DNA of 32,000 nucleotides from Candidatus Thorarchaeota archaeon (GTDB taxonomy: Archaea; Asgardarchaeota; Heimdallarchaeia; Hodarchaeales; Hodarchaeaceae). Shown here piece by piece: positions 2,466 to 8,779 of this stretch. Position 1 is the first letter of the stretch. Each line of letters begins with the position of its first letter. Made by a program: the position numbers and the translations under genes. The stretch covers positions 330,001-362,000 of the forward strand of contig JBHLRO010000002.1 of NCBI GenBank assembly GCA_048882505.1, given 5' to 3'. The notes beneath the pieces were generated by a model, which was given only the letters and a program-made list of their open reading frames with translations, did no database searches and was not told the origin of the DNA.

Positions 2466-5216
2466 TCAACTTAAAATTCTTAGTTGATCCTCTAGTAGAG
2501 ATTTTTTGATCTCCAGTTCTGACAATTTCCCCTTTTCCCGTTCAACAATTTCAGGAGGCGCCCGTTTCCCGAAAGGACCATTCAGCTTATAAGTGGTAGC
2601 AGAAATATCTTTCGTGATTTTGGTCAAATTTATTTCGATTCGCTGTTTCTCCTTTTCCAAATCTATAATTTCTTCAAGGGGGACATAGGCAGTAATTTCC
2701 GGAAGAACTACCCGTGCTGCCCGCTGGGGAGAATCCAAAATTGATGACATGACTAATTTTTGAGGATCTAGTTTTGCAAGTGCCACAATTTCCTCTCGGG
2801 TTGCTTCAAAGGCTGGCGCATATTCTCCGGGATTTATAAGAAAAGGAATCTTGGCCCCTAGATTCACATTATAGTCCCCGCGAATTCTTCTGATCTCACG
2901 AATTAGCTCCATGGTAAGAAGAAATTCCTTTTCTAGATCAATATCAATGAGGTCATCACGGTATTTTGGCCATTCGGTCACGATCAAGGCAGGTTGAACC
3001 CGTATTGAGTTTGGAAGTCGCTGCCACAGTTTTTCAGTAACGAATGGCATGATAGGATGGAGCAAGCGAAGAGTAGTGTCTAAAACATGAAGTAAAATAA
3101 CCTTGGGAGCGACTTTGACCTCCTCATTGATTCCATGGAGCCGAATCTTGCTGATCTCAAGATACCAGTCGCAAAACTCACTCCAATAAAAGTTTTTTAT
3201 GTCACGAGCGGCTTTTAGGTAATCCATTTCTTCTATGGATGCAGTTACCGATCTGACGGTCTGATGTAATCGCGATAATATCCACTTATCAGCGAATCTC
3301 AGAGTTGGAGCGATTTCATCCAGAGTTGGGAATGTTTCTCCTTTTTGGACATGGCTGAGGACATATTTAGCAGATTGCCAGACCTTATTGGCAAATCGAT
3401 GAGCCGCCTCAAGTTGTCTGGGATCAAGATTGATATCAATACCTGGAATGGTGTTCGATATCAGAACAAAACGTAAACAATCCGCTCCATATTCCTTAAT
3501 TATATTTAATGGATCATATTCTTCCACATCTTCCATAGATTTACTTATTTTCCGCCCTCGTTCATCTCTGATAATTCCATGCAGATATACCGTACGATAA
3601 GGGGTTACTCCTGTTAATTCATTGCCCAACATCATTTCTCGAGCGACCCAGAAAAAAAGGATATCATAGCCAGTTTCCCTGGTATCAGTTGGATAGAATC
3701 GCTGAAAATCTGGGTGTGAGGTGTCCGGCCAATGGAGGGTGGAAAAGGTCCACAAACCACTTGAGAACCAGGTATCCAGAACGTCCTCTTCTTTAACCAA
3801 ATTCTTACTGCCACACCTGGAACATTCAGCAAGTTCGTCCACATTCGGAGATGGGCAGATTTCTTCCGAACAATCTTCACAGTACCATATGGGAATCCGA
3901 TGACCCCACCAGAGCTGACGAGAAATACACCAATCTCTAATGTTTTCCATCCATTGGAAAAATCTTTTTTCCTCCCTCTTAGGAATAATTACTGTTTCAC
4001 CTTTACGGACTTTCTCCATAGCCGCCTCTGCCAGGGGTTTTGTTTTTACGAACCATTGAATTGATACTCGTGGTTCGATCACAGTAGCACATCTTTGACA
4101 ATGGGGTTCTGTATGAACGTATGGTTCTATCTTAACTAGCAGTCCCTCCTGTTCTAGATCTTTCACAATAGCTGTTCGACCTTCCTCCCGTTTCATTCCG
4201 GCGTACGGCCCTGAAACATGTGGAAGTAGACGTGCTTTTTCATCTAAAACTGTTACGACATCTAAATCATGTCTTACTCCGATTTCGAAGTCATTTGGGT
4301 CATGTCCTGGCGTGACCTTCAGAGCTCCTGTTCCAACTTCGGGATCGACGTATTTGTCTGAAAAAATGGGGATCTGCCGGCCTAATATTGGGAGAATGGC
4401 GTTTTGGCCAACAAATTTCGAGAATTTATTGTGATCAGGGGTTGTAGCAACTCCTGTATCCCCTAATAGAGTTTCAGGACGAGTAGTTGCCACAACAATA
4501 AATTCTTTTGCTCCTTTTGCCCAATTTCCACTACCCCATTCTGATTTGGGGCCTTTCCAGGTAGGCGTCAAAACTGGGTATTTTATATACCAGAGATGGC
4601 TTGAAGTGTCCTTCGGTTCTGTTTCTAGATCAGAAATGGCCGATTCGCAACGTGGGCACCAATTGACCATGTATTCGCCACGATAGATCAATCCCTTCTG
4701 ATATAAGCGGTAAAAAGCTTCACGTACTGCTCTTGTACAGACTTCATCCAATGTGAAACGTTCACGGATCCAGTCACTACTCATCCCCATCTTTTTTGAT
4801 TGCTCCGTGATTCGAGCATGATAAATTTCCTTCCATTCCCATACTTTTTCTACGAACTTTTTTCTCCCGAGTTTTTTTCTCTTAATCCCTTGCTTTAAGA
4901 GTTCTCGTTCTACAACGCTCTGTGTTGCAATTCCTGCATGGTCTGTTCCAGGCATGAACAGCGTTTCTTTTTGCTGCATCCGAGCGTACCGGGTCATGAG
5001 ATCCTCAATGGAAATGGTCATCGCGTGACCTTGATGGAGACGACCTGTAATATTTGGCAGCGGTATAGTAATGCAAAATCTGGGACTTGTCTCCCGATCC
5101 ACGAGGCCTAGTTTAATTTGTGTCTCTGGACGAAAAAATTCATTGGACTCCCAGAACTTGTAAATTTCCTCTTCGAATTCACTGGGATCGTAAGCCTTAG
5201 CTAGCTCTTTTTCCAT
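2466..5216 (-). CDS. valS: Valine--tRNA ligase, bacterial-type with C-terminal coiled-coil arm
   Basis: HIGH variant HQGH (5025-5036), KMSKS variant KISKS (3537-3551), GTDHAGIATQ, TTRPET, DWCISRQLWWGHRIP, DVLDTWFSS, FCDWYLE and a C-terminal arm ending APPEIVEREKGKL. Confidence 0.97.
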   Translation of the reverse strand: MEKELAKAYDPSEFEEEIYKFWESNEFFRPETQIKLGLVDRETSPRFCITIPLPNITGRLHQGHAMTISIEDLMTRYARMQQKETLFMPGTDHAGIATQSVVERELLKQGIKRKKLGRKKFVEKVWEWKEIYHARITEQSKKMGMSSDWIRERFTLDEVCTRAVREAFYRLYQKGLIYRGEYMVNWCPRCESAISDLETEPKDTSSHLWYIKYPVLTPTWKGPKSEWGSGNWAKGAKEFIVVATTRPETLLGDTGVATTPDHNKFSKFVGQNAILPILGRQIPIFSDKYVDPEVGTGALKVTPGHDPNDFEIGVRHDLDVVTVLDEKARLLPHVSGPYAGMKREEGRTAIVKDLEQEGLLVKIEPYVHTEPHCQRCATVIEPRVSIQWFVKTKPLAEAAMEKVRKGETVIIPKREEKRFFQWMENIRDWCISRQLWWGHRIPIWYCEDCSEEICPSPNVDELAECSRCGSKNLVKEEDVLDTWFSSGLWTFSTLHWPDTSHPDFQRFYPTDTRETGYDILFFWVAREMMLGNELTGVTPYRTVYLHGIIRDERGRKISKSMEDVEEYDPLNIIKEYGADCLRFVLISNTIPGIDINLDPRQLEAAHRFANKVWQSAKYVLSHVQKGETFPTLDEIAPTLRFADKWILSRLHQTVRSVTASIEEMDYLKAARDIKNFYWSEFCDWYLEISKIRLHGINEEVKVAPKVILLHVLDTTLRLLHPIMPFVTEKLWQRLPNSIRVQPALIVTEWPKYRDDLIDIDLEKEFLLTMELIREIRRIRGDYNVNLGAKIPFLINPGEYAPAFEATREEIVALAKLDPQKLVMSSILDSPQRAARVVLPEITAYVPLEEIIDLEKEKQRIEINLTKITKDISATTYKLNGPFGKRAPPEIVEREKGKLSELEIKKSLLEDQLRILS

Positions 5217-5514
5217 AGTTATCGTGTTTACGGATACTTTAATAATTATTGTCGTATACTGAATCTATCCCAGTAGAAATGGACATTGCTGGGTACTTCA
5301 AAAAACTGGTGATGAAATCTTGGAATTTCATGTACGGAGGGATTGATCAGACTAACATCCCCGAAAATCCAAAAAATGTGCGATGAGCCCAACTACAAAA
5401 TTCTCCAGTCCTTCTTAAAAAGAACAAATGCAATGTTGAAGCGAAACATCATATTAATTTCAATGCCGACAGCAGCTCAATAACTAGACGGTATTATTTT
5501 TAATCATGAACAAG

Positions 5515-5540
5515 GAAAAAAGAAAAAGGGAAAAAATTGG
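5515..5540 (-). terminator. Oligo-T terminator candidate for the histone gene
   Basis: Minus strand reads TTTTTTCCCTTTTTCTTTTT about 15 nt after the histone stop codon, as expected for archaeal intrinsic termination. Confidence 0.55.
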
Positions 5541-5553
5541 TTTAAATAATTAA

Positions 5554-5784
5554 TTATTTGCTTGCTGCCAGCCGAATATCTACTTCTTTGACAGTTCTAC
5601 GTCCTGAGTGTTTTGCAATATCCACTGCATATCGCGAAACATTCATTCCATAGTCGGTTAATACCTCATTCAATCGATAAACCGCATCAGCAGATACACG
5701 GAATGCACCGGCGTCGCGAATCACCTTTTCTACTCGTGCCCTGGCAAAGCCTGACTTCCGTCTTGCTTTAGTTCGTTTGGACAT
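5554..5784 (-). CDS. Archaeal histone (HMf family) with short basic N-terminal tail
   Basis: DAGAFRVS and HSGRRTVKEVDI match the HMfB motifs DAGAERVS and HAGRKTIKAEDI. An AGGTGA SD lies 6 nt upstream of the ATG, with a TATA box upstream and an oligo-T tract downstream. Confidence 0.96.
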   Translation of the reverse strand: MSKRTKARRKSGFARARVEKVIRDAGAFRVSADAVYRLNEVLTDYGMNVSRYAVDIAKHSGRRTVKEVDIRLAASK

Positions 5785-5860
5785 TTACTTTCACCTTTTT
5801 TCCATCTAGTGTGTTGTGGGCCTGTTAAAAGAGCCACAGAAAACAGAAATACCGTCATTA

Positions 5861-5880
5861 TTTATAAATTTTATTTTTTT
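5861..5880 (-). promoter_or_regulatory. BRE/TATA promoter candidate for the histone gene
   Basis: TTTATAAA at 5861-5868 is preceded on the minus strand by an A-rich run, about 77 nt upstream of the ATG. Confidence 0.55.
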
Positions 5881-6292
5881 TCTTCTGAATGGTTTTTCCT
5901 AATATATATCAGTTTAACAGGTGCTCTAAGTAAACAAGAGTTCTATAATATGCTATTAGCCTCCAAATGTCATCTCATGGGTCTTTCAATTAAATGCTGT
6001 TAAATCATACGGTATTTGATGGTGAAAATATAGATCATAGCCATCTTATGAAATCCTTATGCATCCTGAATGAAAATACTGAAGCACGCTGGTTTTTCAA
6101 CCTTTTTAACGAAATAAGAATGTACTAGTACATGATTAACCAAGTGAAATATGCAGGCCACCATTTCCTCGTTTTTATTATATATTGTTTACAAGGATAC
6201 AGTACGAAACCAGACTGGGCACGTTTCCCATGCTGGGCTGCGAACAGCCAATACACATCTCAATCTTGATTGCTACGTTAACTCTTAAAATT

Positions 6293-6307
6293 GAAAAGGT
6301 TAAAATA
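6293..6307 (+). promoter_or_regulatory. BRE/TATA-like promoter candidate for the acidic micro-ORF
   Basis: GAAAAGGTTAAAATA resembles a purine-rich BRE plus TATA, about 40 nt upstream of ATG 6348. Confidence 0.4.
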
Positions 6308-6347
6308 CGGATATATTTGAGCGGGTTTCTTAGTTCATGGTTCTCCT

Positions 6348-6542
6348 ATGTATAAGGACAGGGACAATATTGTGAAAAAGCGTGGTAGATATAAAATGAG
6401 TAAAATTAAACCCACTAAACGGATTATCGAACCAGATGAACATGCTGGGAATGATAAGGAGGAGGATTCTGAGGAGAATTACGATGAGGACGACGATGAA
6501 GATTATTATGAGGATTATGACGAAGATTATATCAGATACTAA
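6348..6542 (+). CDS. Small protein with basic N-terminus and D/E/Y-rich acidic tail (start 6348 or 6396)
   Basis: Stop-free frame with 21 Asp/Glu and 6 Tyr in the last 37 aa. Mixed synonymous codons (GAT/GAC/GAA/GAG) suggest protein-level selection rather than slippage. Confidence 0.65.
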   Translation: MYKDRDNIVKKRGRYKMSKIKPTKRIIEPDEHAGNDKEEDSEENYDEDDDEDYYEDYDEDYIRY

Positions 6543-6680
6543 AACGAATAATGATTAGCTAATAGATATGGGATTGAATCTGATTTTGAACGTAGCTGCC
6601 TTAAAACTAAGTCGGGAGAGTTTGAAATTGGATTTCTTTTAATACTGGCTGTTGATTAGATCTCAATGGTGCGGAATAGT

Positions 6681-6851
6681 ATGGGCAAATCCAAACGAAA
6701 GAACCCTTCACCGAGAAATCCTGATGAATCCAAGAAACAATCGAAGAATAAATGGAGTCGTTTTTCCTTGATTTTTTCACTTTACTCAAATCCTCTCGTT
6801 TTAATGTCAGGGGATTCTTATTTTTTTTCCTATTTCATCATTAGCAAATAA
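6681..6851 (+). CDS. Possible small protein, basic N-terminus and hydrophobic C-terminus (start 6666 or 6681)
   Basis: MGKSKRKNPSPRNPDESKKQSKNKWSRFSLIFSLYSNPLVLMSGDSYFFSYFIISK. Support is the ORF only. Confidence 0.3.
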   Translation: MGKSKRKNPSPRNPDESKKQSKNKWSRFSLIFSLYSNPLVLMSGDSYFFSYFIISK

Positions 6852-7017
6852 TAATCTAAATTCTGGATGAGAAGGTCACTGGACTGAGTCCTGTCGGCTT
6901 AGTTGGTAAAGCAGGAGAAACGTATGAAAAGAATTCAGTACAAGTGGTTACCTCATTCGTTTTCCTTTGGGTATGCCGCTTCGTCGATTCGGGAAATTTC
7001 ATGGATTGTGGTAGTTT

Positions 7018-7179
7018 ATGAAGATGGCAGATAGGAAAGTGAAATCTATTGAAAAGGAATTGCAGATTATTGATAGACATTTGAGGACTATAACTGGTAT
7101 CAAATCTCGTCAGAAATTACTGAAAAGAAAATTAGAACTGAAAGATGAACTTAAACGAATAAAAAAGAAAAAAGGATGA
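7018..7179 (+). CDS. 53-aa basic helical-hairpin/coiled-coil microprotein (DUF465/YdcH-like motif)
   Basis: Hand-translated, below the ORF-track cutoff: MKMADRKVKSIEKELQIIDRHLRTITGIKSRQKLLKRKLELKDELKRIKKKKG. It has a heptad pattern and is followed by a T-rich tract near 7207-7218. Confidence 0.65.
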   Translation: MKMADRKVKSIEKELQIIDRHLRTITGIKSRQKLLKRKLELKDELKRIKKKKG

Positions 7180-7296
7180 CCTTTAGCAAGATAAATGAAG
7201 TTTGGCGGCAATCCACCTTTTAATCTGCTTTTTTTTATATCTGATCGAAATATCAGAAAAAACGAGAAGAATCAGATCTTGAGTTCAATTCATACC

Positions 7297-8376
7297 TTAA
7301 AACCATTTTTTCGTTCGAAAATAGGTTATCATTGTAATTACTACAATCAGCATTAATAATAGTGTCAATGGATAACCAAAAATCCATTCTAGTTCTGGCA
7401 TGTATCTGAAATTCATTCCATAAATTCCTGAAATAACTGTTAATGGAATTGTAATGGTAGCAATGATCGTTAGAACTTTCATTATCTCATTCATTCTGTT
7501 ACTAGTACTAGAAAGATAGATTTCCATCATTCCGTTGATCATATCTCTCAGGATTTCTAGAGTCTCTATGATTTGAACAGTATGATCATAAATGTCACGA
7601 ATGTATCGGCGAGTGTTCATTTGAATCAGGTTTGAACCAGCTCGTTCTAAACGACTCACAACATCTCTTAAGGGCCATATTGCCCTACGCAGATGCAGCA
7701 GATTCGTTTTGAGCTCATAAATGGTATGTAAGGTCTCCGTGTTCGGGTTTGAAATTAGGTCGGTTTCTAACCTTTCAATTCTATTACTAAGCTTTTCCAA
7801 AACCACGAAATAGTTGTCTACGATTAGATCGAGGAGGCTATAAAAGAGATAATCGGAACCTGAGTGTCTGATTTTCCCTTTATAGCTCTTAATTCGGTTT
7901 TTTATTGGATCAAAAAGTTCATTAGGAGCTTCCAAAAACGTAAGAACGTAATTTTTGGTTAGAACCATACTAATCTGTTCTACTGTGATTGCATCATATT
8001 CGGGGAGATAGTCCAGCGTTTTTACGGTGATAAAGATAGTTTCGGTATATTCATCGAATTTTGGTCTTTGATCAGTGTTTAATATATCTTCAATCAGAAG
8101 GGGATCAATAGAAAAAGTGTTACCGATCTCCCCGATTACTCTTATATCATGCAAGCCATCGATATTGATCCAAAAAACTTTTCTTTGCTCTTCAAACCTT
8201 GTAACCTCCCTAATCTCATCTAAACCAATTTCCTCAGAATTATCCTTATCATATCGAAGAAGTGTTAGTGTTGTTTTGTCCGTTTTTTTGCGACCAACGA
8301 ACACGGGGGTTCCTGGAGGCAGCCCTAACTTTTTCGTCCTTCGTTTAATCAATTGTGTCTTTCTTAACAAGCCCAT
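7297..8376 (-). CDS. corA: CorA magnesium/cobalt transporter
   Basis: GMN motif in GIYGMNFRYMPEL, two C-terminal TM helices, EDILNTDQRPKFDEY, and the N-terminal GLPPGTPVFVG. Confidence 0.96.
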   Translation of the reverse strand: MGLLRKTQLIKRRTKKLGLPPGTPVFVGRKKTDKTTLTLLRYDKDNSEEIGLDEIREVTRFEEQRKVFWINIDGLHDIRVIGEIGNTFSIDPLLIEDILNTDQRPKFDEYTETIFITVKTLDYLPEYDAITVEQISMVLTKNYVLTFLEAPNELFDPIKNRIKSYKGKIRHSGSDYLFYSLLDLIVDNYFVVLEKLSNRIERLETDLISNPNTETLHTIYELKTNLLHLRRAIWPLRDVVSRLERAGSNLIQMNTRRYIRDIYDHTVQIIETLEILRDMINGMMEIYLSSTSNRMNEIMKVLTIIATITIPLTVISGIYGMNFRYMPELEWIFGYPLTLLLMLIVVITMITYFRTKKWF

Positions 8377-8432
8377 CTAGGTCCCAAAAATGGTATTTCT
8401 AACTTGATTGTGTATGTATCACCAGTGTGACA

Positions 8433-8570
8433 TTATTTTCCGCAAAAACCTTCAATTTCCGTTCGTAATCTTTCTCTCAGTTCAATGAATCTTGGATTTC
8501 TGGATTCTCTTAGTGCTTGAAAAAGCATCCACGCGTAGTAAAGATCTTGATACGATTCGACTTTTTTCAT
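8433..8570 (-). CDS. 45-aa micro-ORF, or 3' part of a longer TGA-interrupted frame (8433-8771)
   Basis: MKKVESYQDLYYAWMLFQALRESRNPRFIELRERLRTEIEGFCGK, preceded by a GAGGT SD-like motif 7 nt upstream. Confidence 0.45.
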   Translation of the reverse strand: MKKVESYQDLYYAWMLFQALRESRNPRFIELRERLRTEIEGFCGK

Positions 8571-8779
8571 CGAAAGAACCTCATCAACTGCTGAGCTTTT
8601 TGTATTTAAATACTGTCGTAGGACTACGAACAGTCACTCAGAGGATACATATTCTTTATCGTTTCATGTTACATTCGGGGTTTCAAATAATTCCCAATCT
8701 TCGGATTGCCTTACTATTAGCGCAATTAGGTCTTTGGTTCAAAGATTTGTGACATGAAGACAAATTATCATCCGATTTC

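Follow-up and report, generated by a model that had tools for sequence, protein, structure and literature searches.

An acidic, tyrosine-rich micro-ORF beside a tailed archaeal histone gene is probably a fast-changing member of an Asgard microprotein family

Does a very small acidic gene beside a tailed archaeal histone gene encode a protein dedicated to that histone? The question is raised by a stretch of 32,000 nucleotides (the window, in which all positions below are counted) from a Candidatus Thorarchaeota archaeon, whose archaeal order is thought to be the closest to eukaryotes. The window carries on its minus strand a gene for a tailed archaeal histone (5554..5784; 76 aa, net charge +10.6, 12-residue basic tail; PF00808, E=9e-12) and, divergent from it, an acidic open reading frame (ORF) in which an earlier note had seen a candidate minimal histone chaperone. 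Tailed histones are a trait of the Heimdall group and a key unknown in chromatin evolution (PMC7776873). As histone chaperones are reported to be virtually absent from prokaryotes, and are held to be eukaryotic inventions (bioRxiv 10.1101/2021.11.30.470311), a prokaryotic chaperone niche is open. We find that the acidic ORF is probably a gene of a fast-changing kind within an Asgard-wide family of microproteins, and that the evidence does not single out the histone among its basic candidate partners.

The frame described in the earlier note, 6348..6542 on the plus strand, was confirmed, and its 64-aa translation has the quoted acidic end with Tyr. The described distance of about 560 nt from the divergent histone gene is also correct, with 563 nt to ATG 6348 and 611 nt to an inner ATG at 6396. 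Likewise the length of 48 to 64 aa holds, the inner start giving 48 aa and the outer one 64 aa. The shorter gene (6396..6542, plus strand; 48 aa and a stop codon) encodes the basic N-terminus that had been claimed, MSKIKPTKRII (head charge +4), followed by the claimed acidic tail, a D/E stretch carrying six Tyr (positions 29, 37, 38, 41, 45 and 48). Altogether the 48-aa product contains 21 D/E, 6 K/R and 6 Tyr, with neither Trp, Phe nor Cys, ends in IRY, and has a pI of 4.05 and a net charge of -15.4; it was given no confident fold (pLDDT <50, taken from a complex prediction). A tandem repeat (6462..6530, plus strand; 12-nt unit GATGAAGATTAT, 24-nt super-unit) underlies the tail, which is built by about three copies of the 12-nt D-E-D-Y unit at 6495-6530. 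The in-frame upstream extension of the 64-aa form (6348..6395, plus strand) is more likely a 5' leader: it contains an RBS-like GTGGTAG at 6382-6388 and is 83% identical to the corresponding DNA of a species of the same genus, G016, with codon changes that are nonsynonymous in six cases and synonymous in one. Given that ATG 6348 reads ATA in G016, the 48-aa form is the conserved form.

To judge how unusual the frame is, all stop-to-stop frames of at least 25 aa in the 4.3-Mb genome of the host (G000) were counted. Only 11 of 94,983 were hyper-acidic (at least 15 D/E per 25 aa), and three of these 11 are micro-ORFs of one architecture, namely the window ORF and two paralogues. Because such frames are extremely rare genome-wide, the acidic ORF is not a chance product of composition.

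Direct conservation could be followed in a single relative. Protein queries revealed a homologue in one of the 21 other species of the genus, G016, and the 1.5-kb spacer is also alignable with G016 only (88% identity). The DNA of the ORF is 84.7% identical between the two genomes, within the range of the surrounding spacers (83-90%), while the nearby genes reach 97.4% (histone), 96.6% (CorA) and 93.8% (a 53-aa ORF at 7018). The substitutions are distributed over the three codon positions as 3, 5 and 13. This third-position excess (P=0.007) is seen in the ORF's own frame and in neither of the other two, and a third-position share as high occurred in just 6 of 439 spacer control windows. The single indel measures 3 nt and is in frame. 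On the basis of the third-position excess and the in-frame indel we read 6396..6542 as a coding sequence that starts at 6396 and would be under weak, composition-type constraint. In the G016 copy Cys replaces Tyr29, a TAG stands at codon 31 and the original stop has become CAA; the predicted G016 product is therefore only 29 aa long and has no aromatic residue. Most changes beyond this TAG remain synonymous, which suggests that the G016 stop arose recently. Searching the protein database with the 48-aa query returned the window's own 48-aa and 64-aa forms alone, and no further relatives emerged when metagenome and genome contigs were scanned with back-translated queries. One Logan contig, a second assembly of the same sequence that probably stems from the same population, contains the identical 64-aa frame. 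Contigs of four related metagenome runs cover 5574-6271 and 6833-7300, and none lies on or bridges 6293-6780.

The candidate promoter of the earlier note is plausible as far as its sequence goes: a promoter-like block (6280..6322, plus strand) with a TATA-like TTAAAATA at 6300-6307 is almost invariant between G000 and G016 and may serve the acidic ORF. Variable sequence follows, and then comes another almost invariant block made up of GTGGTAG, ATG 6396 and the first eleven codons; the block of RBS, start and head is about 98% conserved. The 6280-6322 block could not be aligned with the promoter and palindrome of the canonical relatives described below. A scan for bacterial-type promoters and terminators was uninformative, the host being an archaeon, and Rfam returned only chance matches below threshold over 5000-8000. 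The heptamer GTGGTAG, found 7 nt before ATG 6396, recurs ahead of the 53-aa ORF at 7008-7014, 3 nt before ATG 7018 and 9 nt before ATG 7024; GGTGA, not GTGGTAG, precedes the histone and the canonical cassette ORFs. On the histone side of the spacer, the 316 nt upstream of the histone start (5785-6100) are 94% identical to G016, the highest value among the spacers here, and are also covered at about 90% by contigs from two other metagenome runs. This conservation could stem from a long promoter or leader, or from an element not yet recognised.

Looking beyond direct homologues, we found that the window ORF fits an Asgard-wide family of very small proteins, each with a basic head and an acidic tail bearing aromatic residues. 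Its members are ORFs of about 25-80 aa in which a short basic head is joined to a tail dominated by D/E, features that the window ORF shares. It lacks the periodic Trp of the family (W-[DE]4-5-W) and has Tyr instead; as some members, e.g. those at loci L092-L094, mix Tyr with Trp, the missing Trp may mark a variant rather than exclusion. At the DNA level, the pattern W[DE]4W[DE] was present in 60 of 400 Asgard genomes (about 80 matches, compared with 1 for the reversed control), and W[DE]4W in 17 of 83 genomes of the class. Among 30 fetched loci, the pattern sits in a tiny ORF of 24-91 aa in all but one. Matches to W[DE]4W[DE] are concentrated in family f31, genera g78 and g79, where about half or more of the genomes have 1-3 matches each, often as overlapping repeats; these genera are the richest place for studying such proteins. 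The head of the window protein (TKRIIE) resembles that of the histone-cluster copy in another species of the genus, G015 (TKKIIE). A family profile matched the window ORF at E=6e-12, a score that is partly circular because the window ORF and its G016 homologue were among the seven rows of the profile; moreover, the peptides are short, acidic and of low complexity, and likeness among such sequences is a poor guide to homology. None of the members queried matches a Pfam family, including DSS1/Sem1, a canonical paralogue drew no candidates from a database of 5.8 billion proteins, and a literature search on DSS1 in Asgard archaea and on archaeal acidic or lysine-rich microproteins found no paper on the family.

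Within the genus, the Trp-type members have a characteristic arrangement. The two paralogues in G000, 36 and 47 aa long, lie in tandem on contig C1; in both, the head is rich in K/P and the tail consists of E runs and then W-D-D-E-D repeats. A 21-aa Lys-rich ORF precedes each of them by about 55 nt; the four ORFs all carry a GGTGA RBS, and a SAVED-domain gene (PF18145, 4e-21) adjoins them. W-type loci in this genus invariably (6/6) include a Lys-rich micro-ORF with a Shine-Dalgarno sequence, and a two-gene cassette with a Lys-rich peptide of 19-23 aa is the normal arrangement of the family here. The C1 cassettes (G000:C1:425610-426590, corresponding to 7610-8590 of locus L039) are 96-100% identical, spacers included, to those on contig C83 of G016, whereas their flanking spacer and the neighbouring 340-aa gene are only about 84% identical between the two genomes. 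This identity reflects either very strong constraint on coding and non-coding sequence or recent transfer or gene conversion.

The window ORF resembles these canonical cassettes in its size class (30-50 aa), its short K/P-rich head, its D/E tail and its periodic aromatic residues, and W-type copies are found in the histone cluster of G015, G021, G019 and G012. It differs from them in having Tyr for Trp, in its upstream region, in the lack of an intact Lys-rich partner and in its divergence, being about 85% identical between G000 and G016 where the canonical cassettes are 97-100% identical. A Lys-rich-like ORF does follow it (6681..6851, plus strand), of which the first 24 aa have a charge of +6.5 before the frame reads on into hydrophobic sequence. 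Conservation in the region is lowest here (79% identity to G016), and the changes show no third-position bias (4, 5 and 6 by codon position). Judged by these features, ORF 6681 is a possible decayed remnant of a Lys-rich partner that lost its stop. The order of an acidic ORF followed by a K-rich one is also found in G019.

We also asked whether the acidic ORF accompanies the histone across the genus, a synteny check that the earlier note had proposed. Orthologues of the tailed histone share 72-80% identity. The most conserved neighbour of the tailed histone is the 53-aa ORF (7018..7179, plus strand), an apparently unannotated frame whose basic, coiled-coil-like product has a charge of +12.6, 94% identity to G016 and no match in Pfam. 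Ten of the 22 genomes of the genus carry it; its homologues adjoin the orthologous histone, in divergent orientation, in G015, G007, G009 and G002, and adjoin the acidic ORF in G012. The 53-aa product may be a small chromatin or transcription factor. The cluster of the genus comprises the 53-aa ORF divergently upstream of the tailed histone and a TFS/RPB9-like zinc-ribbon gene downstream. In G015 the TFS-like protein (L040:10298-10642) has 115 aa and two zinc ribbons, an RPB9-type one at the N-terminus and a TFIIS-type one at the C-terminus, each matching below the Pfam cut-off; orthologues occur at loci L041, L042, L043, L046, L047 and L057, directly downstream of the tailed histone in most species, and the gene is missing from this position in G000 and G016.

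The synteny check gave a divided answer. An acidic ORF is part of the cluster in six species and absent from it in three (G007, G009 and G002), and the six clusters that contain one show five different positions and orientations. In G000 and G016 it separates the histone from the 53-aa ORF. The G015 copy lies beyond the 53-aa ORF and comes with two Lys-rich ORFs as well as the canonical promoter and palindrome, and that of G021 is located downstream of the TFS-like gene. In G019 the acidic ORF stands between the TFS-like gene and a second histone and precedes a Lys-rich ORF, and in G012 it stands between the TFS-like gene and the 53-aa ORF, in a 3-kb locus without a histone. Half of the acidic-ORF loci in the genus are located away from the histone cluster, with copies in G000 and G016 (the SAVED locus), G002, G007, G009, G011 and a second locus of G019. 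The seven remaining histone paralogues of G000 all lack an acidic micro-ORF as a neighbour, and at about 20 family loci outside the genus no histone was found within 1.5 kb. The linkage of acidic ORFs to the histone cluster is thus real and far from random placement, but it is confined to this genus, and the acidic ORF is not obligatory for the tailed histone. The linkage could reflect shared ancestry combined with local rearrangement.

The neighbourhoods of family loci are rich in extreme polycations. Outside the genus, a recurrent neighbour is a protein of about 280-288 aa with a pI of 10.8, a charge of +28 to +31 and no Pfam family, which was seen beside acidic-Trp micro-ORFs at 7 or more of about 26 loci in several families of Asgard archaea (examples are L089:236-1099 and L078:1948-2811); a single query did not find it in G000.

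The explanation that we favour, with about an even chance of being right, is that 6396..6542 is a real, fast-evolving Tyr-type member of this family acting as a generic polycation binder. Its 48-residue product would be an intrinsically disordered polyanion in which Tyr replaces Trp. It may bind very basic partners electrostatically, with the aromatic residues as anchors, and this binding would neutralise or sequester those partners in competition with nucleic acid, by analogy with DSS1 or prothymosin-alpha. Candidate partners are the flanking 53-aa protein (+12.6), Lys-rich peptides and the tailed histone (+10.6). The cassette of G000 and G016 would be partly eroded, its Lys-rich partner decayed, its Trp lost and its tail truncated in G016; the decayed ORF 6681, the loss of Trp and the G016 truncation together suggest an old cassette whose acidic gene is still coding in G000. 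Against the same reading stand the identity of the ORF to G016, which does not exceed that of the spacers, a G016 product devoid of aromatic residues, and the lack of Trp, of an intact Lys-rich partner and of the canonical promoter or palindrome.

In a rival reading the ORF would be a pseudogenising copy of a once functional acidic/Lys-rich cassette, with constraint relaxed in G000 and G016 and no current role. Its divergence is spacer-like (84.7%, compared with 97-98% for the canonical paralogues of the same two genomes), G016 has acquired a nonsense codon, lost ATG 6348 and changed the stop codon, the putative Lys-rich partner has lost its stop and any coding pattern, and every Trp is gone. 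We nevertheless regard such decay as rather unlikely, given the third-position enrichment in the ORF's own frame only (P=0.007), the in-frame indel, the roughly 98% conservation of the RBS, start and head, the mostly synonymous changes after a G016 stop that looks recent, and a frame that is intact in G000 and in the second assembly of the same sequence. Still less probable, and very doubtful in our view, is that no gene exists here and that the frame opened by chance within a GA-rich tandem repeat of a long AT-rich spacer. The 12-nt tandem repeat of the tail, the spacer-like divergence, the lack of a Pfam family and database entries limited to the window's own sequence would all agree with a chance frame. 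They are opposed by the extreme rarity of such frames in the genome, where the other two of this architecture are clear cassette genes, by substitutions that are codon-phased relative to G016, and by the finding of this architecture in the corresponding cluster of other species.

A dedicated minimal histone chaperone or DNA mimic, whose Tyr-capped acidic runs would bind the dimer or the tail of the tailed histone, draws on the divergent arrangement at about 600 nt, on acidic ORFs that recur by the orthologous histone in five further species despite rearrangements, on an analogy with eukaryotic histone chaperones, which use acidic runs followed by aromatic residues, and on the open niche in a group for which tailed histones are a trait. 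The comparative results do not support this proposal of the earlier note: the closest relative, G016, has no Tyr at all, the histone cluster of three species contains no acidic ORF, no two lineages place and orient the ORF alike with respect to the histone, and the approximately 20 family loci outside the genus have no histone within 1.5 kb. In addition, half of the loci in the genus lie elsewhere, e.g. by the SAVED-domain gene, the seven other G000 histone paralogues lack such a neighbour, the constant partner of the family in the genus is the Lys-rich micro-ORF, and the acidic ORF is flanked by two other very basic small ORFs that are equally good candidate partners. We therefore consider a dedicated chaperone improbable. 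A complex prediction with two histone chains and the microprotein scored 0.00 and, its controls not having been run, counts neither way on binding. The narrower proposal that the family was recruited in this one genus as a chaperone or antagonist directed at the N-terminally tailed histone appears slightly less probable still.

Under the favoured reading of a generic polycation binder, the window ORF is a rapidly evolving, Tyr-type addition to a widespread family of Asgard microproteins for which we found no describing paper and whose queried Trp-type members are absent from the protein database. A polyanionic peptide gene that has kept its association with the tailed-histone cluster despite several rearrangements is also a testable candidate in chromatin evolution. 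The minority reading as a chaperone would matter if binding of the peptide were confirmed; recruitment of the family to the tailed histone, if true, would give prokaryotes their first histone chaperone, one that foreshadows in function the acidic/aromatic motifs with which eukaryotic proteins bind histones.

Several known systems invite comparison with the window ORF. A leader peptide or attenuator was considered and set aside, as no downstream gene is consistently co-oriented. LysW and ArgW are small archaeal amino-group carriers with an acidic tail containing an aromatic residue, LysW combining a zinc ribbon with a C-terminal EDWGE motif for substrate attachment. The window ORF has no Cys and hence no zinc ribbon, no EDWGE-type end and no lysine-biosynthesis genes nearby, and a carrier of this type was rejected. 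With Chz1, Swc5, APLF and the tails of Spt16/Pob3 it shares D/E runs that end in an aromatic residue, but the motifs of these eukaryotic chaperones reside within larger proteins, mostly target H2A-H2B and have no sequence homology to the window ORF. DSS1/Sem1 is a small, acidic, disordered adaptor of eukaryotes and a DNA mimic, with PCI proteins, BRCA2 and RPA as partners. Neither the window ORF nor five relatives matched its HMM (PF05160) at E values up to 10, and identification with DSS1 was set aside; a literature search found no paper linking DSS1 to Asgard archaea. The likeness is one of kind: the predicted product is tiny, probably disordered, strongly acidic and has aromatic residues within acidic runs, and its mimicry of nucleic acid is presumed by analogy. 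Both DSS1 and prothymosin-alpha are disordered polyanions that clamp basic partners through charge and compete with nucleic acid, and the polyanion-polycation pairing of prothymosin-alpha with H1 resembles what the acidic microprotein and its very basic neighbours would do.
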